A stretch of 64,000 nucleotides of DNA from Sphaerodactylus townsendi. Taxonomy: Eukaryota. This document shows positions 15,967 to 62,851 of this stretch, piece by piece. The number at the start of each line of letters is the position of its first letter. Position 1 is the first letter of the stretch. The DNA lies in NCBI RefSeq assembly GCF_021028975.2, contig NC_059440.1, positions 30,628,001 through 30,692,000 of the forward strand, written 5' to 3'. Under the pieces are notes generated by a model. The model ran no database searches and was not told the DNA's origin. It was given only the letters and a program-made list of their open reading frames with translations. Made by a program: the position numbers and the translations under genes.

Positions 15967-16206
15967 CAGGGATCCAGCAACCTTTACCACCCAAGGAGCC
16001 ATTTGGACCTGTTTTCCACGGCCCCGAAGATCTACCGAGCTGGAGAGGTGGCTCCCCATGGAGCCATGCCTCCAGTTTGGCCCCTCCACTCACCTTTCCT
16101 GGAGGGACACGCCCACGCTACCCTCCGACCTCCAGGCCAAGCGGAGCTGCAGTATAAGGCTGAAAGAGCCACATTTGGCTCTGGAGCCGCGGGTTGCAGA
16201 CCCCTG
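15967..16206. mobile_element. Non-autonomous hAT (Charlie-like) element
   Basis: Termini CAGGGATCCAGCAACC and GGTTGCAGACCCCTG; the 3' subterminal ggctctggagccgc is also seen at 31874-31916. Confidence 0.7.
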
Positions 16207-16538
16207 CCTTAACCCTAACCCTAACGTATTATTTTTATTTAATTTTTTCCAGTCATAAATTGTTCCCAAAATTGTTATAAAAACCCAAAACCTAAAACTG
16301 GCCATAGCCCTTTCCTCAGACTGTGCCCTAGAACTCAACGTAACACTAAGGCAAGCCCGAGCCCCTGCTGTTGCCTTAACCCTAACCCTAATTTATTATT
16401 TTTATTTAATTTTTTCAGTCACAAATTGTTCCCAAAATTGTAACAAAAACCTGAAACCTAAAACTGACCATAGCCCTATTCTCGGACTGCGCCCTTGAAC
16501 TCAACATAACACTAAGGCAAGCCCGAGCCCCTGCTTTT
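16206..16538. repeat. Two-unit tandem repeat (period about 167 bp), each unit starting with telomere-like (CCCTAA)
   Basis: Units 16206-16372 and 16373-16538 align throughout; both start gccttaaccctaaccctaa. Confidence 0.9.
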
Positions 16539-16773
16539 GCCTAGCCCTTTTAATGGGTTATTTTCCACAGGGCGGAAAAAGAGTCTCTGATGACCAAGAG
16601 AGCCTGGACCCATTTCTGGGTTTGAGGATCTGGTGATCGTCAGCTGATTGACTCACACTGTTTAGTCTTGCCCCAGAGTTTTGGAGGGTTCTGTTTTTCA
16701 TTAAAAGTTGCCATTTGGGCAGTCAGGAAAAAGTTTGTCAATCTTGGCTGCAGTAAGTGGCCAGCGTGTGGCG

Positions 16774-23368: not shown

Positions 23369-23600
23369 NNNNNNNNNNNNNNNNNNNNNNNNNNNNNNNN
23401 NNNNNNNNNNNNNNNNNNNNNNNNNNNNNNNNNNNNNNNNNNNNNNNNNNNNNNNNNNNNNNNNNNNNNNNNNNNNNNNNNNNNNNNNNNNNNNNNNNNN
23501 NNNNNNNNNNNNNNNNNNNNNNNNNNNNNNNNNNNNNNNNNNNNNNNNNNNNNNNNNNNNNNNNNNNNNNNNNNNNNNNNNNNNNNNNNNNNNNNNNNNN
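23369..23600. other. Assembly gap
   Basis: Run of N. Confidence 1.
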
Positions 23601-24879
23601 TTCGCATAGATGCTGGGTAGCAAGGCATGATGGCACTCCTTCGCAGACTGGGTTGAAGGTAGACATATTTGGGGACTACTGGCCAGTTTCTGCTGTGACC
23701 CCTCATGCTTGTTGGCTGTGAGTCCTTTTGTGGAGGTGGACCTTGGTCTGCTTGAGCCATCTTATGTTTGGGAGCAAGAGTGCAGACCTGGGATTAGTTA
23801 TGCCTTCAGGCACCCTTGCCACAAAACCGCAAAATGAAAACACTGTGCAATTGTTGCCGTACCAAAAATACTCCTCTGACATCTGCAACCATTTGCACAA
23901 GGCTTTGCTGCCCTGAATGAGGTCCTTGCAGCAGCCAAGATGGCAGTTCTCTGACTCTGGGGGAAGGAAAGTGTGACAGCAAAGGAAAGGGGGGGTTCCT
24001 GGTCCCCCCCCCCCCAGGGCTCAGGTTCTCTGGCTGCTGTGAGCTCCTGTTGACTCTTCTCTCTGCCTCAAATTCTCCTCCACCCTCCCTCATCCCGTCC
24101 CACTTTGGCTGGCATCTTCCTCCTTCGCCGCACAAGAATGCAGCCAACGGGCCTCACCGCTAATGCGCTTCCACGCGCTGGGCTGCTCCTTCCTCTCCCT
24201 GCCCCTGGAGGTATCTCCGCTCTGTGCACACCTCTGTGGTCACATCAAAGCACAGGACAGGTGAGCCCCCTCCAGCCATCACTGAGGGGTCCCAGTCCAG
24301 TTTTTGTTGCTGTTCCTGGAATGAAATTGAACAGGTTGCTGGACTTTAGGGGCTGGAGCTTCTGCCACAGAGATACAGGAGCAGAGCAGCATTGCTCTTT
24401 ATGCCCAGGAGCCATACCTCCCCGGGGGAGGGGCTGCAGGGCTCAGTGGCAGAGCACACGGCCCCAGGTTTGATCCCCTGGCATTTTCCATTACAGGCAG
24501 CAGTTCCTGAGAGAGGCCTTGGAGAACTGCTGCCTAAGTCAGAAGTAGGCTGAAATTAGCCACCAACAGTTGCAATTCTAGTGGTGGCAGTGGTTAGTCC
24601 TGAGGTACCTTTTAAGTATCTGTATTCAAAATGTCATTTCAGGCAGAGGCCGTGTGCCATGGGGGGGGGGGGGGAGACAGAGGAAGGCCCTGTTGGGAAC
24701 CCCTGCTCCCCCAAATCCATGTGTTAGAAGCAGGGACAGCCCTTTGGAAGGTTCCAGTAGGGCGGGAACCTTCATGTTCAGATGCAGTCTACCAGTTGCT
24801 TGTAAAAACACTCAGGGGGCAGCTCTTCTCTGTTCCCCATGCCCAAGCATCCACATTTGTCTCTCTTTGTCCTCAACAG

Positions 24880-25079
24880 GTAACCGGCTGGACGAAGGCT
24901 CCGACGTGGAATCCGAGCCAGACCTGCCGCTGAAGCGTAAGCAGCGCCGCAGCCGGACCACCTTCACCGCAGAGCAGCTGGAGGAGCTGGAGAAAGCCTT
25001 TGAGAGGACTCATTACCCGGACATCTACACTCGAGAGGAACTAGCCCAGAGGACCAAACTCACCGAGGCCCGAGTCCAG
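24880..25079 (+). CDS. PAX7: PAX7 coding exon (human exon 5 equivalent): linker plus homeodomain helices 1-2 and start of helix 3
   Basis: Acceptor ctctctttgtcctcaacAG and donor CAG|gtgaga; 200 bp. Encodes (G)[66 protein letters not shown]. The residues [15 protein letters not shown] and RTKL fit PAX7 rather than PAX3 (DIDS, ERAF, RAKL). Confidence 0.97.
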
Positions 25080-29950: not shown

Positions 29951-30242
29951 NNNNNNNNNNNNNNNNNNNNNNNNNNNNNNNNNNNNNNNNNNNNNNNNNN
30001 NNNNNNNNNNNNNNNNNNNNNNNNNNNNNNNNNNNNNNNNNNNNNNNNNNNNNNNNNNNNNNNNNNNNNNNNNNNNNNNNNNNNNNNNNNNNNNNNNNNN
30101 NNNNNNNNNNNNNNNNNNNNNNNNNNNNNNNNNNNNNNNNNNNNNNNNNNNNNNNNNNNNNNNNNNNNNNNNNNNNNNNNNNNNNNNNNNNNNNNNNNNN
30201 NNNNNNNNNNNNNNNNNNNNNNNNNNNNNNNNNNNNNNNNNN
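29951..30242. other. Assembly gap
   Basis: Run of N following a (GTT)n tract. Confidence 1.
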
Positions 30243-32398: not shown

Positions 32399-33261
32399 TG
32401 CTAGCTGAATGCTTTCTGCTCCTCCAGCTGGTATCTCACCAAGATCATAGGCCTTTAGGTCTTTCTACCATCCTGCTGTCTGAGATTCTTCTAAATGGAG
32501 GTGCCAGGGACTCATCCTTTGAGTAGATGGCAAATTTACTAGTAAATATTTTTTTTAAAAAAAAAAATTAATGCCAGCAGAGATCTAAGATAGGACTTTT
32601 TTTATTTAGTCTGGACGGCTGAGGACTGATCTGTGTTGCAGGAGGCAGAAAAGGCGAAGGGGCTGTTTGGGGGGCGCGTATGCTGCTGAGAAAGACGAAG
32701 CTACAGCTTTTGCGATGTTTTGAGAAATTCATCTGGGGGCCTCTCCTGGGCCTAAAGGGCTAAGAAACATGATTAAATTTCACAGCAACAGAGGGGGAAA
32801 ATTGAACAAAAACTCGAGCCTGAAAGGCAAAGCAAGTGGGCCGGGGAGTCTGGGGGAGGGAGGCGTGAAGCCGGCCTTAAGAAATGCCTGTTGGCAGAAG
32901 ATGTTTTTTAGATGGACCATTGGAAGGTGGATAGCAGCGTTACTTTGGGGGAGCCCGACTGGACATTGCTGTCTTTCTACCTCAAGCCAATCTCTAAGTG
33001 ACTCAGCCCCCAAACTCTCCTCCCAACTAGGGAATCAGAATTTGGCTGCCCATAGTGGTCATGTATAAAAGTCTGGCTGGCCAATGACAGGCCTGGCGCT
33101 ACCTGTCCCCTCTTCCGGAGAACGTGCTGGGCGAGGCAGGCAGTGCTTTGGATCTCCCCTTGCACAGTATCCTGCCCTCCTTGGAACTGGGGATGCCCCC
33201 GGGGTTCTAGAATCTTCCCGCCTTTGCCTGAGTCACCCGTGTCGCCCTCTCTGTCCCGCAG

Positions 33262-33427
33262 GTCTGGTTCAGCAACCGAAGAGCCCGGTGGCGCAAGCAA
33301 GCAGGGGCCAACCAGCTGGCTGCTTTCAACCACCTCTTGCCAGGGGGATTCCCGCCCACTGGGATGCCAGCCTTGCCACCCTACCAGCTGCCAGACTCGA
33401 CCTATCCAACAGCTGCAATTTCCCAAG
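33262..33427 (+). CDS. PAX7: PAX7 coding exon (human exon 6 equivalent): homeodomain recognition helix (Ser50) and start of the P/S/T-rich region
   Basis: Acceptor ccctctctgtcccgcAG and donor CAAG|gtgact; 166 bp, joined in phase 0 to the previous exon. Encodes [55 protein letters not shown]. The intron between homeodomain positions 46 and 47 is typical of PRD-class genes. Confidence 0.97.
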
Positions 33428-33467
33428 GTGACTGCAGAGGGTGTGGGAAGGGGAAGGGCTTGTCTAC

Positions 33468-33492
33468 CTGCTGCTGCTGCTGCTGCTGCTGC
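33468..33492. repeat. (CTG)8 microsatellite 40 nt into intron 6
   Basis: Directly visible. Confidence 0.9.
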
Positions 33493-33536
33493 ACCTCCTT
33501 GATCCAGTCTGATTCTCCTTCCTTTCCCATTTGCCT

Positions 33537-33835
33537 AGCGGCGTAGGAGGTTAAGAGCTCGTGTATCTAATATGGAGGAACCAGGTTTGATTCCCAGCTC
33601 TGCCGCCTGAGCTGTGGAGGCTTCTCTGGGGAATTCAGATTGGCCTGTGCACTCCCACACACGCCAGCTGGGTGACCTTGGGCTAGTCACAGCTTCTCGG
33701 AGCTCTCTCAGCCCCACCTACCTCTCAGGGTGGCTTGCTGTGAGTGGGCGCGTGGAGCCGGAGCCTGTCAGCCCCTTTGAGTCTCCTGCAGGAGAGAAAG
33801 GGGGGATATAAATCCAAACTCTACTTCTTCTTCTT
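33537..33835 (+). mobile_element. tRNA-derived CORE SINE (Squam3-like)
   Basis: A box (ggcgtaggagg), B box (ggtttgattccc), CORE gctgggtgaccttgggctagtcac and (TTC)n tail; near-identical to the 52973 and 56640 copies. Confidence 0.9.
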
Positions 33836-34521
33836 TGCAAGCGACTCTGTATGTCCCCAGTGCAATGCTGGGTAGGCCTCTTTGTCCCAAGAGTGCAAGA
33901 TTAATTTGCAGCAAGATTTTAGGGGAGTGAAAAGTTCTGCCGTCCCTGCCTCTCCGTAGGTCTTTCTGTCCCTCACCTCCCACAGACAGATACATGATGT
34001 GCCACACCTTAAAAGACAACAAGACAAACATTTCCCCTTCATTAGCTTTACCTTCCCCTCTTTCTCCCACCCTAAGTGAACCGCCCCTGCCCACCTATCT
34101 GCCCCACCTTTAGACTTCCCTTGCTAAATCCTTTGGACACTGGATTCCTCCTACTTCCCTCCACAAAGTGTAGCCAAAGACAGCACAGTTTTGTTGTGCG
34201 GGATGTGGGAAGCTCGGTGGGTTATTGTGCAATTAGCCCCCCCCACACACACACACACACACACACAATCACAATGGCATCTCCCAAGGTTCTGTGTGAG
34301 GATTTCCCTGACTTCATATTCACAAATAGAAGTCACTTTTTGTGTCAATCCTCCTTCAAAAGTATACATAGGTGCTCTTTCTATTAGTAGTAGTAGGGAG
34401 GTGGCCTAGGGAACTTGGGAAAGCAGTTGGCTCCCCAGCCCTAAATCTTTTCTCTCTACTGATCTAGGGATGAAGGCACTGCTTGTTCTTTTTTACTTGG
34501 CTCCTTTGTTCTCCTTGGTAG

Positions 34522-34728
34522 ATTTGGGGTGAACAGGCACTGTGCACAGACCCCAGCCTCTCCCGCCATCCACCATGCACCAGGGGGGTCTCGCAGCCGC
34601 TGCTGCAGACTCCAGCTCAGCTTATGGGGCTTGCATGTTTCTTCCAAGCTATTCGGACAAGCTCTTGCTGAATGTCACGGGCTCCTAAACCACAAGGAAC
34701 TGGTCAAGTAAATCTGGCCCTCTCTCCA
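34522..34728 (+). CDS. PAX7: PAX7 exon 7 homologue, disrupted in this sequence (in-frame stops and indels)
   Basis: 34539-34631 reads TVHRPQPLPPSTMHQGGLAAAAADSSSAYGA and is later followed by SYSD, matching PAX7 exon 7. Polypyrimidine tract plus AG at 34520-34521. In-frame TGA at 34530-34532 and TAA at 34686-34688; remnants of N-H/V-S-N-G-L-S-P codons precede GT at 34729 and 34733. The 3' boundary is approximate. Confidence 0.8.
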
Positions 34729-36321
34729 GTGGGTGTGCAGTATTTCTGTCATCTCCTTACGCCAGGTCATTCCTCATAGTTTGGAAATCCACATCACGCA
34801 TGCCTCAAACTTCATTAGACTCTCTATGGTTGTTCCTAAGGGGCTGGGACTTTCTGTTACAGCTCCTACCCATACAACCATGGTGCTTGCAGGAATCCGC
34901 TCAAGTGCAAAAGCCTGCCAGATGTATGCAGCTGCTGCTGTTCCCAATAGCAGCCCACTTGAAGCTATCAGCATGCCACGCCCTTCCCATCGTGGTAGGC
35001 ACTTTCCCAGCATTCTCCTGCTCTAGATTTCTTCCCAGGTGATGGAGTTCCAAATAATTTGCTCTTGCTTCCAAAATGGAGCTGATGGGAATCCTCCATA
35101 GCTTAATTTCTTTTAATTTCTGAATTTTGGATGGAACACTGTGTCAACGTGTGTGCACTTCTGGATTCTGCTACCTGGGGTGCCTTTCCTTTCTGCTCTT
35201 CTTCCCCATTCCATGCTGCTGGTATTCCTGCATTTAAAATTACTAATCATATAATTGTACATACAAACACACATGTTATACACTATTATTAAAGTGCAGA
35301 CCGCATGCAATCCTAATATAGCAAAACATTTATAAAATAAGTGGGGGGCTTTTATGCAGCGTTTTTTTGGGGGGTTCATCAAAAATGCAGATGGGGGGAA
35401 GACACAGGTTCAGCCCTGGCAAACAGCATATATGTTCTACTTCTCAAATTAATTTTAGAAATTCTCCTAGCTAAATGGGGAGGACAGAGGAGTGGGGTGT
35501 CATACAGAGAGTTTCCAAATCTACAAAGGCACAGAGCCTGAACAGGAGTCTGCTTGGCCACCGTCAGTAGACAGTACAAGCTGTCTGTTTGTTTCCATCT
35601 GCCTTGCTGAAGAGAAATGCATTCTCATGGGGGAAAGTGAGGACCTTGCTCTGATTCTCAGATGTGGAGTTTGCATGAAGAAATTCTCACACAGGGCCTT
35701 CAAGTCCTGTCTATGGCACTCCAAACAGACAAAGCCTTCGGCCTCCAGACTGCAGCTGTGAGGGTTGTGTTTCCCTGGGTGGACGGAGGTCTGATTTTGA
35801 CAAGATTACATCATCCTTCTGCAAATGCAGGCGGTGGTTTGTGATTGGTTGGTTGCTGCTGCAGGAAAATTTGGCCAGGAACTCTTAAATCGGGTTGAGC
35901 TGTTGTGTGAACGGTGAGATGTTTGCAGAAGCTGCGAACGACGGCTGTGGTTTGAGTTGCCAGCTCTGGATTTTGAAACTCTTGCCTTGTGGACCGGGAC
36001 AAGGGGGGATGTTGAGGCAAGCAGAGCATCTGGTAGATCGTAGTTTGGAGCGGAACAGAACCAGAGAGATAGTATGAGATCAATTGCCAACAGGTTGGCA
36101 ACTCTGAAGCAGCGGCGGAGGACAGGTTGTTTGATGTTATGTCTACTGTTGATATGGTACTCAAGTGATTAAGGTTTTCAACGGAAAGGATTACCTGTCT
36201 TAGTATTAACTAATTAAATGCATGTATATAATATCTATATATACATGATGCATGTGTACATGGAGAGAGAGAGAGAGAGCCTTTCAGTGAGCAAATCAAT
36301 TCCAAGTACAAACGGGAGCAC

Positions 36322-39534: not shown

Positions 39535-42500
39535 GTCTAACCTCTGAAGCTGCCAATTTCCCTGGAGGAATGGGTCCTTGTGGTCTAGAATTCAGTTATA
39601 ATTCCAGAGAGCTCCAGCCCCCACCTGGAGGTTGGTAACCTTTGTAGAGAAGCATCCCTGAAAACCCTGTCTCCTCACCACAGGCGTATCCAGCCGGGGG
39701 GGGGGGGGCACTGGGTGTGCCTTTGGGTCCGTTCCTGCCAAACGCCCTCCCAGTGTCCCTATAAGCCACAGAAAGAGGGTTTCAAAAACCAGAGTCCCTC
39801 GCCCACTGCTGCAGTCCCAATCCGATCCCCTCCCCACATCCAAAGTTTTAGTGACACAAGCCCAATGTCATGAGTCATTTGTCCCTTCCACGAGGCTGGA
39901 TGCAGAAATTAATTCTCCAGGTCCCAATTAATTGCCCTACAAATGCCTCCTTTATGATCATGCCAAAACTTTCAGTTTCAGTGGAAATCTTGGCACCTTT
40001 TGATGTGTAACCCTGAATGAAGGTAGGAAGTCCCTGCTGTGTGGGGGCTCCATTCCAAAAGTCAGCCTCCCAAGGCCCCCCCCCCCCGTCCTGGAAGGAG
40101 AAGTAGCCGGCCCAGGCACTGCCTCCTAGGGCTTTCTCTCTCTCTCTGTCTTTGTGCCGGAATGACCGAGATGCTGCCGTGGCCCAGAGACGTGGACTGT
40201 GGAGAATTGAAAGGCAGAATTTTTGTCCTCTTTTATATGATTAATAAGGGCACCCAGGAGGCGGTGAGTGGGGCTGATAGAGGGAATGAAAGGGAGAGAT
40301 TAGCAATTAATGTCAAGGCGAGGACAGTGACGGGCAAGGATGGGCAAGCTCTGGAGTTCCGGGCGGGTGGCACTTTCAGGGGGCTGGGACGGCGGCATCT
40401 CTGATGTGGGGAGAAACTGGCAGAGGCTGCAGGAGGCACAGATGGGGACAGACAATGACACTGAAACACTTGGAGTGCAGAATCAGGTAGAAATATTGGT
40501 GGGGGCACCTGTTCTTCCTGTGTGCCCATCTCTGGCCAATCCTTTTGTTTTTTGCTAACTGAGTAATTTGCACCTAGGCCTAGACTCCGTACCAACCATG
40601 GAGATCCACGCCCAGCACAGAATAAACTGGTCAGTACTAGAGAGGGAATTCCCATGACTCCAAGCTTCCTTGGACGTGCTGCAGCTAAATAGCAGAATTT
40701 GGGGCCCCAGCAGACTCTGCAGTGGCCCTTACCACCACCACCACCCCGCGCGCAGACGGCTCCAACCGAGCAGTGGCTCTGAGTTCCCCTGGTGCCCCCG
40801 CTCCTAGGACAGTTTAGGAAAACCCCATTAGTGTTTAGGCCAAAGCTAAGCCCTTGGGGGGGGGGGGGATTCAACTGACCCTTAGAGGGAACCTCTTGCA
40901 CAGCTGCTAGTTAGGATGATAGCAGAGATGGAACCTCCATATGCAACTGCAGCATGCCCCTGAGTGCTACATCTCGGGGCTGTGTGCCTTCATGCTCAGC
41001 TTGTCTTTTGGGACATCTGGCTGGGGGAGGCAGGAGTTCGATAGAGGCAGTTGTAGGCAGAGGAATGTAGGCCAAAGACACGGGGCTGTCAACGGATTCA
41101 GCGAACAATATCCTATCCCTTTAATAGAGGCTCAGTTATAGGGACGGGGAGCCGAAACTTTTCTTGCATGGAGGGCCGATAACATCCCCTGGCAAGACCC
41201 CAGTAAGACTCTGTGAAGGGTCTTGCTGGCAACTGGCAGGAGAGTCTGGGGGCTTTCTGGCACCCCCACCGACCCCGCCTCCCACTCCCGGGAGATGTTT
41301 CGGCCCCGGCAGCGGCAGCAGAAGATCAGCTCTCCTGGCGAGGTCTGCGGTCAGGCAATGAGGAAATTGATCAAAGGTGCGGCGGGCCGGGCTCTGCCGA
41401 TAAGCCCGGCTCTTGAAGATTATCTGGTCGGGGAAATGAGGGGATCTTATTTCAGTCAAGAAGGCCCTGAAAAGAGATCATGAGCAACTCTGGGAGCTGC
41501 CAGAGAGATGGAGGGAGGTGCCTGCGGGGGGGGGGGGGGGCTGCTCTGATCTAATCTCAGCTAAGCGGCATAAAGCAAATCCCGGCTCCTCTCCTGGGAT
41601 GTGCACAAAGGGGATAAAAAACAGGGATTCTCCCCCCCCCCCCCATTTCAGGGGAACTTGCCCGAGACTGCTGAGCAGCTGGTTCCGCTGGGGAAAGTCC
41701 TACAGTCCAGCCTGGCCGGACAAAGGAATTGCGGCTGAGGACATCCAGGCAGGTTGTCCAGGCTTTGAGGCCTTCAGTTGACCAGGACCAAGGCTGGGTT
41801 TGTCCCGGAAAGAAGACCTCCTAACTCAGGAGCCGGCTTGGACCCGAAGCCAGATCAGCAGAAAGCACAAAGCGCACTTTAGGCATGTGCAGGGTATCTT
41901 TCCCCCTACTCCTGAGCAGTCTTAGCCATGAAGCATTTTGGGAGCTCTCAGTCGCCCTCATTTATAGTAATGGAATATGTGATCACTCTGCCTTCATTTG
42001 CCTGAGGTGAACTTCTCTGGAAAGATATGGTGGATTTACACCATTGTCCTTATCGTGGCTTCCCTCATTCTCCAACAATCCTAGGGACTGTAGCTTGGCA
42101 AGGGTGCAGAGAGCTCTTTGTTAGAGGACCCTGGCAGTACTACAAGTCCCGGGGTTCTCTGGGAAAAAGAAATATTAAAGCCAGGTGTAGAGGTGGAGGT
42201 CTGGCCAGCCAGTCCCTAGAAAGCCATAGAGTTCCAAGCACTGGAGTCCTAGAGGGGCTTTGGTTTTCTCCATTCCTCCATGGAGATTGGTCCTTTTCTG
42301 CCTCCGTGCAACTTTTTATTTATTTATATACTCAATGGATGTGCCCCCCAGTAGGGCTCAGGGTGACTTTTCCTCCCATCCATGCAAAACAGCCTATCCA
42401 GCCCGCAGTTTGGTGGAAGCCCCTGGCTCAGACCAGTTGTGTGTGTGCAGCGCTAGCCCTGGTCGCCAGTTGGCAGGCTGGGTCTATCAGGACGATGGGG

Positions 42501-42849
42501 ACATCAAGACTGGTGGGTTTTGAGCTCTCAGGGGCAGTTCAGTGTCCTGCTTGATGGAGCTGGACCTTTTCCAGCCAGGCAGTGTCAGGAGTGTGGTGGC
42601 TACAGCCAGGATCTGCAGTGGTGGTCCCAATGGAGTGCCAGGCGTGGCTGGCTGGGCCACTCGGGGCCTGGTCGCCATGACAGTTTTCCAGCACCACTGC
42701 CAATGAGAGCAGCCCCCCTGCAAGCCATACAGGAACTCGGCAGTGTTTCCTTTTGCCCCAATGCCCCTGGTCTTCACAGAGTGGGAAGTGACTCTCTTTG
42801 GAGCTGATCATTTTCGAGCTGTTATCCTTTAGGGGGACCGCCCCCCCAC

Positions 42850-43900
42850 TCCTTTGCTTGGGAGCCCGAGGCCGTGGCAGGCAGGGGTGCTGTCCGGGGG
42901 GGGGGGCATCCTCGACGCCCCCTCGCCTTCCTCCCACTGAGCTTAGTTGGACAAACTTGGGGGGGCGGGCGGGGGTGCCCACTGCCCAGCGACCTCTTCT
43001 GGTCCCTCAAGGGCAGCCTGCGCTTCGTCCAAGGCGGGGCAGGGAGAGAGGGAGCCAGCGGGGGCTGCTGGGGGGCTGCGGAGGGAGGATGTGCAGCGCC
43101 GCTCCCCCTTGGGCCGCAGAGCGCGCGGAAGGGCTGGGGGGTGGCGGTGGGGCGGCTGGTTGGCAGCCCCGGCCTCTTCTCCGGGCTCTGGCGCGTCCTC
43201 CTCCCCCTCGTCCTCCTCCCCGGGAGCGCTGCGTGGCACCGGGGCGCGCCTGCACGGCGGCGGAGGCGGGCTGGGCCGTTGCGCGGAGGAGCGCCTTTGA
43301 TGCATGGCCCGAGGCCCGCTTGACGGCGGCGCAGGCGAAACCGGGCAGACAAAACGAGCCCGTCAAAGTGATGCCTGACAACTGTCGCCGGGCGATAAGG
43401 CAGCGCGCCGCGTCGGGGTGTTTCGTGCGCCGCTGCCGCCGCCGCCCCTTCCCTTGCTCGCTTTCTTCCCTTTCTTCCCAACCTCTCCCACCCCCACCCC
43501 CCGTTTCCAGAAGGCGCCGCCGAGTCCCTTTCAAGCCAGAAGCGCCGGCCAGGCAGGCAAGCAGGCAAGCAGCCTCGGCGGAGCGCAGCGCCACAGCCAG
43601 GCAGTCCGGGCGGGGCCCCACCTGTCCGCCGGTTCCTCCTGCGAAAATCCTCCTCCCCCCCCCCCTTCTCCTCTCCCCTTTCTCCTGCTGCCTAATGCGC
43701 TGTGTCGGATGCTGCCGGTGCCGAGTTTAATTATGTACCGAAGAGAAAAGGCTCAGAACATTTGCAGGTGGCCCCGATCATCGCCAGCTTATTATCCTCC
43801 GCTCTATCCACAGGGAAACACCTGCAATTCAAAGGCGAGGGTGGGGGGCGCCGGAAAAAGCCCTCTGCGTTATCTCGCAGTGGCCGTTCCTCTGACAACT
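42850..43900. promoter_or_regulatory. Intronic CpG island with enhancer-like core
   Basis: About 1 kb very rich in GC and CpG; core 43270-43410 has cctttgatg (TCF/LEF), tgacaactgtc and gataa. Confidence 0.7.
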
Positions 43901-44990
43901 GCACGAGACTGGGGGGCTGCTGGTTCTTAGCAGCCCTGCAGGCATCCCGGCAAGCTCTCCGCGTTTTCCTTGTGCCATCCATGCTTTTTTTTACCCAAAG
44001 GGGGCCAGAGCTACTCTGCCTCCTCACTGGCAAAGGACCAGGAGGCCTGTGAGAATCTACCCGCCACTGGATGGGAGGTTTGCAAGGGAGGCTCCAAGGG
44101 GGAGTGTGGCACGCACTCACACCCCCTGCCCTTTCTCACAGACTTAGGATGAGCAAGGCTTCCCTATTTGGTCTTTCGTTGGAGTGAAAAGGGCCCAGAG
44201 ACACGGATCTGCTGCTCAGGAGGAGCGCAAGAGTTTTGTTAAAGTGGAGGTCCAGGCAGGCCTCCTGTGAACCAGAAGGTGGAGCCCGGGCAAGGCCCTG
44301 GGGGTCCAGAAGCTCTGTTGCCCGTGGCTACTTCCTGGCTGGCCTTCCCGGCTGCAGCCAGTTCAGGTGCCAAATTCACTCAGTGCTTCATGCATTTGTT
44401 TACCTCGCTTGGACTCAGCCCCCCTGCCCAAGAGGGGCACAAAGAGACTTATCCTTTCCTCCTTTTCCTCCTCACCCCCACCTTGTGAGGTAGGTGAGGT
44501 GTGACTGGCCTGCGCTCACCCTGCCAGCTCCCACGGCTGAGTGGCGATTGATGCCTGGCCCTCCCAGATCCTTGCCTGTCATTCTGCCCAGTAGAATTCC
44601 CCTCAAAGACAGCTTGTCCGCCATCTCTGGTTTGCAACATTCCGTCTTGGGAAAGGTCTGGGTGTGAGGTGAGGAGTATCGCGTGTTTCAGGGGGGCAGG
44701 ATGAGGCCAAGATTGAGCCGTGGGTGCCCCACAACAACCTCTGCGCCACGTTGGGGCCCCACATCAGACAAGTGGGTGGTCTTCAGTAGGGAAACATTCC
44801 CTGAAGGCAGAAAGAATGTGAAAGGCTCTGTTTCTTCCTGGTTCTCCCAGGCCCCAAATGAGAGTAAGCAGGCCGCTGCACGCGTTCTTCAGGCCAGAAT
44901 TGGGGCCTCCTGTGCAGCCACTCAGTCACTGTGCTTCACGCTCCCCAGCTTGTGCAAGCAGTGACTGTCAGGGCAGTTCAAGGGGTAGGG

Positions 44991-50240: not shown

Positions 50241-50356
50241 CAGGGGTGTCCACCTCTGGTGCCCCAGATGTTCATGGACTACAATTCCCATGCTGGCAGG
50301 GACTGATGGGAATCATAGTCCATGAACATCTGGGGCACCAGAGGTGGACACCCCTG
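50241..50356. mobile_element. Palindromic hAT MITE (CAGGGGTGTCCACC terminus)
   Basis: Inverted arms; TSD gcatagag/gcacagaa. Confidence 0.85.
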
Positions 50357-56907: not shown

Positions 56908-57085
56908 NNNNNNNNNNNNNNNNNNNNNNNNNNNNNNNNNNNNNNNNNNNNNNNNNNNNNNNNNNNNNNNNNNNNNNNNNNNNNNNNNNNNNNNNNNNNN
57001 NNNNNNNNNNNNNNNNNNNNNNNNNNNNNNNNNNNNNNNNNNNNNNNNNNNNNNNNNNNNNNNNNNNNNNNNNNNNNNNNNNNNN
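56908..57085. other. Assembly gap
   Basis: Run of N. Confidence 1.
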
Positions 57086-57869: not shown

Positions 57870-57952
57870 CGTAGGTGTCAAACTCATGCTGGCAGGGGAT
57901 GATGGGGACTGTAGTCCATAACATCTGGAGGGCCACGAGTTTGACACCTGGG
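57870..57952. mobile_element. hAT MITE (CGTAGGTGTCAAAC terminus) with left arm deleted
   Basis: TSD tcctagaa on both sides. Confidence 0.9.
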
Positions 57953-57960
57953 TCCTAGAA

Positions 57961-58084
57961 CCGTGGTGGCGAACCTTTGGCACTCCAGATGTTATGGACT
58001 ACAATTCCCAATTGGCCATGCTGGCAGGGGCTGGTGGGAATTGTAGTCCATAACATCTGGAGTGCCAAAGGTTCACCACCACTG
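57961..58084. mobile_element. hAT MITE (CCGTGGTGGCGAACC terminus)
   Basis: TSD tcctagaa on both sides; same subfamily as the 44991 copy. Confidence 0.92.
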
Positions 58085-58450
58085 TCCTAGAAGGTTAAAA
58101 CAGCCCTAGAGTTATCAAGCAAGCCACTAGATTTCCTTGACTTGGTCCCAGGCCGAGGTGGTGGTGACCATGAATGGCTGGTTGCCATGGCAGCCAGTTG
58201 ACCATTCCTTGACCATTAGCAGGCCTGCAGTACAGCAGCCCACAAGAAACCTTCCTGGCACATTCAAGAACCTCTCCACCCCACCCCCTCTGTTCTCCAA
58301 GGGCCGGCCGGCCGTTCTGCTGCCAATTGAATAAACTTGGTTATACCTGATGCAAGAGGTGATCTGCCTCCCTCCCTAGCAGGCAATGACTGGAGGGAGG
58401 CAGGGCAAAGACATAAGAGCCTTTCAATGGTTGAAATTAATGTATTTTTC

Positions 58451-61858: not shown

Positions 61859-62102
61859 NNNNNNNNNNNNNNNNNNNNNNNNNNNNNNNNNNNNNNNNNN
61901 NNNNNNNNNNNNNNNNNNNNNNNNNNNNNNNNNNNNNNNNNNNNNNNNNNNNNNNNNNNNNNNNNNNNNNNNNNNNNNNNNNNNNNNNNNNNNNNNNNNN
62001 NNNNNNNNNNNNNNNNNNNNNNNNNNNNNNNNNNNNNNNNNNNNNNNNNNNNNNNNNNNNNNNNNNNNNNNNNNNNNNNNNNNNNNNNNNNNNNNNNNNN
62101 NN
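61859..62102. other. Assembly gap
   Basis: Run of N. Confidence 1.
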
Positions 62103-62578: not shown

Positions 62579-62726
62579 CAGGGGTAGGGAACCTGTGGCT
62601 CTCCAGATGTTCAGGAACTACAATTCCCATCAGCCCCTACCAGCATGGCCAATTGGCCATGCTGACAGAGGCTGATGGGAATTGTAGTTCCTGAACATCT
62701 GGAGAGCCGCAGGTTCCCTACCCCTG
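62579..62726. mobile_element. Full-length palindromic hAT MITE (CAGGGGTAGGGAACC terminus)
   Basis: Hairpin; perfect TSD accaagat at 62571-62578 and 62727-62734. Confidence 0.95.
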
Positions 62727-62757
62727 ACCAAGATGATCCAATGGTTTTTGCCTAGAG

Positions 62758-62851
62758 CAGGGGTCTGCAACCTGTGGCTCTCCAGATGTTCATGGACTAC
62801 GAATCCCATCAGCCCCTGCCAGCATGGCCAATTGGAGAGCCGCAGGTTACA
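62758..62851. mobile_element. Partially deleted palindromic hAT MITE
   Basis: Left arm intact; right arm collapses at ccaattgg|agagccgcagg. Confidence 0.8.

Follow-up and report, generated by a model that had tools for sequence, protein, structure and literature searches.

Is the PAX7 gene of the gecko Sphaerodactylus townsendi truly broken in exon 7, or was the exon damaged when the genome was assembled? The question arises in a 64,000-nt stretch of contig NC_059440.1 (assembly GCF_021028975.2, positions 30,628,001 to 30,692,000), hereafter called the window, to whose plus strand all coordinates refer. A first-pass annotation, made from the letters alone, had found exon 7 present and interrupted by stop codons. 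Our analysis indicates that the broken exon is almost certainly an assembly artefact of some kind and very likely not a real feature of the gecko gene. The most probable origin, to which we assign a probability of about 0.88, is a noisy and partly corrected long-read gap fill in a gene that is otherwise normal.

The neighbouring exons are intact. Exon 5 (24880-25079, 200 nt) encodes most of the homeodomain between AG and GT, and all 66 of its 66 residues are identical to six amniote PAX7 proteins. Exon 6 (33262-33427, 166 nt, with AG/GT flanks) ends in phase 1 and differs from the six amniotes in 2-5 of 55 residues and from the S. townsendi UniRef model in none. By tblastn and exon checks, exons 5, 6 and 7 lie in order on one strand, and the core of exon 7 is of the PAX7 type: MHQGGLAAAAADSSSAYG agrees with the PAX7 rows, where Varanus PAX3 reads VHQSSLPSNPESSSAYC. 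This order and this core bear out the initial assignment of the locus as PAX7 exon 7. Three full-length PAX7 proteins, searched against the window by tblastn, revealed no PAX7 exon beyond exons 5-7.

As written in the window, exon 7 occupies 34522-34730, about 207 nt up to a blurred donor, the squamate norm being 197 nt. Its acceptor AG is positioned at 34520-34521. Continued from exon 6, translation runs through D-L-G and then meets a TGA (34530-34532), which is likely spurious and at which the public S. townsendi model stops. There follow T-G, a 31-codon core (TVHRPQ...SAYGA, 34539-34631), CMFLP, SYSD and KLLLNVTGS, until a TAA closes the frame at 34686-34688. The sole GT near the expected exon end, CCA/GTGGGT at 34729, is without the Gln codon, and the final remnant L-S-P, followed by V-G, sits in a different frame. 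The preserved core, the TGA three codons past the acceptor, CMFLP ahead of SYSD, the TAA at 34686 and the blurred donor had all been described by the first-pass annotation, and our coordinates agree throughout.

The exon 7 of other squamates (Gekko kuhli, Podarcis muralis, Varanus komodoensis and Hemicordylus capensis) shares with the window the position between exons 6 and 8, the phase-1 start and the 31-codon core. Compared with this canonical exon, the window carries the SYSD and LSP remnants in shifted frames, needs at least 31 edits, contains two stops and is without a proper donor. In the related gecko Gekko kuhli (P0333, KAL8198195.1), a comparison that had been proposed earlier, exon 7 is intact, and its exon 6 has residues in common with the window. 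Of 177 retrieved PAX3/7 proteins in which the HRPQ core is present, 168 remain in frame through to GL[SA]PQ. The other nine are two intact variants, four shorter or partial forms and three odd gene models; three of the four shorter forms are labelled as cartilaginous fish and the fourth, an unlisted member of such a cluster, was judged by likeness. Some of these cartilaginous-fish PAX7 models (among P0086, P0095, P0103 and P0119) end exon 7 eight codons early. The naked mole-rat, a manakin and one unnamed model (P0023, P0047 and P0057) have a lost or scrambled 3' half of exon 7, possibly through errors in draft assemblies.

We aligned exon 7, with frameshifts tolerated, to all codon choices for the residues of 13 squamate exon-7 peptides followed by a GT donor. 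The minimum path from the window to such an exon edits 31 bases (15 inserted, 5 deleted and 11 substituted). Shuffled controls needed 60-69 edits in 15 out of 15 shuffles, so the resemblance to exon 7 does not arise by chance. The edits are clustered. Six inserted bases fall within 34522-34537, one of them put at 34537 through a GG ambiguity; not a single edit is required in 34538-34631, and the remaining 25 are crowded into the 99 nt of the scrambled 3' half (34632-34730), which holds the TAA and the blurred donor. Under uniform decay, a clean block of this kind has a chance of 7e-9, or at most 8e-7 over all placements. Single-base insertions had been said to dominate the damage. The four single-A insertions named there (34646, 34659, 34706 and 34710) are all in the minimum-edit path and insertions form the largest class, but with 15 of the 31 edited bases they are not a majority.

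The scrambled half is where the Pfam Pax7 domain (PF12360) falls. In the intact controls P0140 and P0176 this domain is found at 3e-21 and 1e-21. The Pfam search with the read-through exon 7 (P0170) returned 0 families at E<=1, with PF12360 unscored. A protein search with the read-through exon (21 hits, 41 candidates) gave no ORF with the intron flanks of this gecko among the 17 unnamed hits.

Accurate reads around exon 7 had been suggested as a check, and the short-read contigs indeed depart from the window in patches. Contigs from four of 13 listed runs (X2, X3, X4 and X7) were compared over 33840-36200, with the SINE and exon 6 excluded. X2 and X3 are two samples of organism A, X4 is labelled organism B, and the four runs represent three studies. 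One organism A sample may be the source of the window assembly. When 409 words were sampled from 32420-36260, only 0.73-0.76 of them were present in the three best runs, all of organism A and from two samples.

In intron 6, the contigs contradict a patch at 34037-34171, where they have 122 other letters in place of the 135 of the window. X2 and X3 each yielded a 421-nt contig that bridges the patch and is exact on both sides of it, at 33840-34036 (197 nt) and at 34172-34231 (60 nt). At the start of the patch, X4 and X7 omit one base at 34037 and insert a C behind 34043. All four runs, drawn from three studies, contradict the window here, so its letters are in error 350 nt upstream of exon 7.

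Exon 7 itself is covered in one of the four compared runs (X4) among the contigs listed. X4 record 16 (240 nt, depth 12.3) matches the core at 34537-34631 with 0 differences over 95 nt, while its first 73 and last 72 letters misfit the window; for these overhangs the comparison gives length and non-fit. Both breaks coincide with the points at which the reading frame fails. The 73 unfitted letters before 34537 stand against the intron end and the first 15 nt of the exon (34464-34536, the left limit being approximate). By bin arithmetic, no other X4 contig fits those two bins. The overhangs would be expected to translate as a normal exon 7 start and as RHSFSSYSDSFM-type sequence.

X4 looks like a mixed run, as it also has pieces that are 13-17% diverged, and the share of the words found in its two sister runs is 0.00. 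Since X4 equals the window at sites where X7 differs, its close component should belong to the same or a very near species. Further exact pieces of X4 lie in intron 7 at 35414-35549 (136 nt), 35520-35656 (137 nt), 35892-36040 (149 nt) and 36078-36200 (123 nt). The intron-7 control at 35440-36007 was clean: X7 record 27 runs through its 568 nt with 13 substitutions and 0 gaps, and X4 records 18, 19 and 21 are exact inside it or overlapping it. We considered X4 record 20 (14 substitutions, no gaps) as a sign of another assembly error and rejected it, X7 and the window being in agreement at that place. Record 17 (32 substitutions, no gaps) was judged likewise by inference from record 20. Both records are consistent with the presence of a more distantly related lizard in X4. 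Separately, the diverged, gap-free X4 pieces at 34885-35072 and 35776-35879 mark conserved non-coding parts of intron 7, which are possible enhancers.

The listed contigs of X2 and X3 give no cover at 34235-35024 or 35499-36200, and those of X7 none on exon 7. These holes are uninformative, since the filter drops records and the word fractions given above exceed what such holes would allow. As a weak consistency check only, the patches revealed by contigs that join or overhang account for 0.10 of the 31-mers, a share that rises to 0.12 once the SINE segment is counted. For all uncovered stretches combined the share would be 0.26, close to the 0.24-0.27 that is missing. No RNA runs holding words of the window were listed, and this says nothing on expression.

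We also compared the kinds of change in exon 7 with those in clean intron. Counted as events, exon 7 has 11 substitutions and 17 indels, whereas three X7 contig pieces from the intron have 24 substitutions and 2 indels (Fisher p=5e-5). Adding two diverged X4 pieces gave 70 substitutions and 2 indels (p=4e-10). Five X7 records were left aside in the count: 26 and 30 are second alleles, 23 enters a suspect patch, 24 is a 57-nt piece flanked by suspect patches, and 28 is a repeat piece. The contrast supports an artefact and stops short of proof, as the test is biased: pieces that can be placed align well and are gap-poor, and the minimum-edit path may exchange substitutions for indels.

Could the stops nevertheless be real? 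The gecko would then have lost the C-terminus of PAX7, its protein ending after the homeodomain and exon 6, or its mRNA being degraded. The stops are present in the sequence, and none of the listed contigs, nor any listed RNA, shows exon 7 intact in full. A gecko can also live with its PAX7 disrupted, as the Mack Super Snow leopard geckos with their exon 4 donor deletion show (PMC11260152), but the Super Snow allele retains in-frame isoforms in muscle-bearing tissue (PMC11260152), and in humans the biallelic loss of PAX7 results in a satellite-cell myopathy (PMC12939336). Exon 8 speaks against a loss. A genuine TGA would leave it untranslated, yet the S. townsendi exon 8 peptide is conserved, with 81 of 81 residues identical to Podarcis and 70-78 of 81 to nine other amniotes. 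A decayed exon should also have its lesions spread evenly, mostly as substitutions, and confirmed by independent reads. Instead, a perfect core lies between flanks that are 25-40% scrambled, unlike neutral decay, and the only exon contig is identical to the core and fits neither flank. Skipping of exon 7 was rejected as well, because its 197 nt shift the frame and skipping therefore cannot rescue the reading of exon 8. The PAX7 splice variants listed in the available part of PMC5852603 lie around exon 8, and none of them skips exon 7.

The conserved exon 8 would also be accounted for if exon 7 had been remodelled, with a cryptic acceptor CAG at 34534-34536 and a phase-0 GT after 34673 giving a shorter exon with a new 3' half and exon 8 in frame. 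On paper, joining exon 6 to 34537-34673 gives an open frame with a phase-0 end. The donor this would require (AAT/GTCACG) is far from the consensus when compared with CAG/GTGAGA and AAG/GTGACT of exons 5 and 6, and the cryptic acceptor is preceded by purines, with no pyrimidine tract. The Pfam Pax7 domain would be destroyed, and record 16 leaves the window at 34632, well ahead of the cryptic donor. A real loss or rebuilding of the C-terminal half, whether by a stop after exon 6 or by a cryptic-site exon 7, is thus very improbable in our judgement, and each of the two taken singly is more improbable still, to the same degree. If it were true, a tail-regenerating lizard would have satellite cells running on a truncated or rewired PAX7, and the species would be a natural test of the need of lizard satellite cells and pigment cells for the PAX7 C-terminus.

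Contigs drop rare variants and show presence rather than absence, which leaves some room for a damaged haplotype private to the single assembled animal. Such a haplotype would have to combine indels and substitutions in a number of dense, distinct clusters while the sequence between the clusters stayed exact. No single mutational event is known to yield such a pattern, and we regard this as the least likely of all the explanations.

An assembly error in the form of a long-read gap fill would account for the pattern. The wrong patches (34037-34171 and both flanks of 34537-34631) alternate with base-exact stretches on a scale of 60-200 nt, which is the patchwise disagreement with accurate reads expected of an artefact. 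The damage is also rich in indels and biased toward insertions (15 inserted, 5 deleted and 11 substituted bases in the exon, and 135 versus 122 letters in the intron), except in the SINE segment described below. We propose that a noisy long read fills this part of a short-read scaffold. Accurate short reads would have corrected it where they could be anchored, and the worst stretches, 25-40% wrong and insertion-rich, would have been left as they were. Both stop codons (TGA and TAA), the frameshifts and the blurred donor would then stem from these uncorrected patches, in a gecko that probably has a normal 197-nt PAX7 exon 7.

The first-pass annotation had preferred an unpolished long-read fill to a true loss. 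The preference for an artefact is supported by the contigs and by the conservation of exon 8, but "unpolished" is too simple. At 17% error, a raw read would stay free of errors over 95 and 197 nt with probabilities of 2e-8 and 1e-16, which is very unlikely, so the fill was likely corrected in part. Gap closers take one long-read fragment per gap and correct it with Pilon or Racon, and the mean raw error was about 17% for one ONT set (PMC7476103). As the density of 25-40% exceeds this mean, a selection of the worst segments must be assumed.

The surroundings of the exon were also inspected. Four N gaps remain in the window (23369-23600, 29951-30242, 56908-57085 and 61859-62102), and two of them begin in the G-rich tails of SINEs of the same family as a copy in intron 6 (33537-33831). 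In this respect the region is like a short-read scaffold. The suspect zone has the intron 6 copy at its left edge, and the segment 33725-33770 of this copy had been called garbled. The segment departs from the two closest sister copies, with 15 private differences over its 46 columns where the 188 columns of the SINE body have 5, although 13 of the 15 are substitutions, so that it is not insertion-rich like the other patches. This comparison relates SINE copies by their letters only, and the segment is also variable in the oldest sister copy.

Its many substitutions and the very high error density count against the gap-fill route. They would agree with an artefact of another origin, for instance a bad local consensus, polishing with mis-mapped reads or a patch taken from a poor contig end, again with the gene intact; the gap-fill step, too, was inferred and not observed. 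Single-molecule long reads are biased toward insertions. The gains in length (13 nt more in the intron patch, and 15 insertions against 5 deletions in the exon) suit such noise, and so does the spread of the damage over a number of distinct patches in at least 700 nt. We therefore consider a consensus, polishing or patching error to be unlikely, and the partly corrected long-read fill remains our preferred explanation.

Several other features of the window were recorded. At 16205-16542 there are two tandem 166-nt units, each opening with telomere-like TAACCC repeats. Palindromic, MITE-like hairpins of 130-150 nt are numerous and fall into several subfamilies (1436, 22086, 27279, 32273, 39391 and 44982), with more hairpin elements of this kind at 50280, 57876-58090 and 62579-62850. 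In intron 7, positions 42001-44000 resemble a CpG island (GC 0.62, CpG observed/expected 0.58), and no exon was found there. Rfam gave no match to the window.

Automated annotation had been predicted to mis-model the gene, and this is borne out by the public S. townsendi proteins. The PAX7 model UniRef100_A0ACB8EEN9 has 171 aa and ends in ...AAISQDLG at the TGA, so that the homeodomain is present and the Pax7 domain is absent. Its exon 6 peptide is 100% identical to that of the window, and its unusual first 33 residues are encoded at 24163-24261. The model opens with spurious exons from intron 4 (24163-24261 and about 24507-24540) and is without the paired box. The exon 8 peptide begins a separate, "uncharacterized" S. 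townsendi protein of 137 aa (UniRef100_A0ACB8EE55, P0206). In residues 82-137 of this orphan an unrelated tail replaces exon 9 and the OAR; exon 9 may itself be absent, interrupted by a gap or wrongly modelled. The S. townsendi PAX7 gene is likely spread over three models or more.

From split models of this kind, gene-loss screens could falsely call a loss of PAX7. A study of tokay-gecko regeneration, in which pax7 is expressed in the regenerating tail, relied for its single-cell data on an S. townsendi reference genome (PMC11715542), which may carry the same patch. As biology the finding is very likely unimportant, since the gene is probably ordinary. Its value lies in the correction of the annotation, and it illustrates that N-free sequence can conceal 25-40% error.

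How does the locus compare with known cases? The retrieved parts of the literature naming both Sphaerodactylus and Pax7 report no broken PAX7. The Mack Super Snow leopard gecko resembles the window in having a PAX7 lesion in a gecko, and there the lesion is real: the donor of exon 4 carries one deletion of 13 nt, skipping is in frame, and the captive morph is without xanthophores and iridophores (PMC11260152). The window, unlike this morph, has dozens of clustered changes that are contradicted by contigs. Human MYOSCO, caused by PAX7 loss of function, indicates what price a genuine early stop should carry, namely the loss of satellite cells, but it is a disease allele and not the fixed trait of a species (PMC12939336). 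The locus also resembles fills of the TGS-GapCloser type, in which a long-read fragment is corrected with short reads and basecalling errors shift the frame of coding regions (PMC7476103). Such fills differ from the window in quality, since the inserted sequence reached an accuracy of 99.97% in a human test (PMC7476103), and by this standard the exon 7 region would be a bad outlier.
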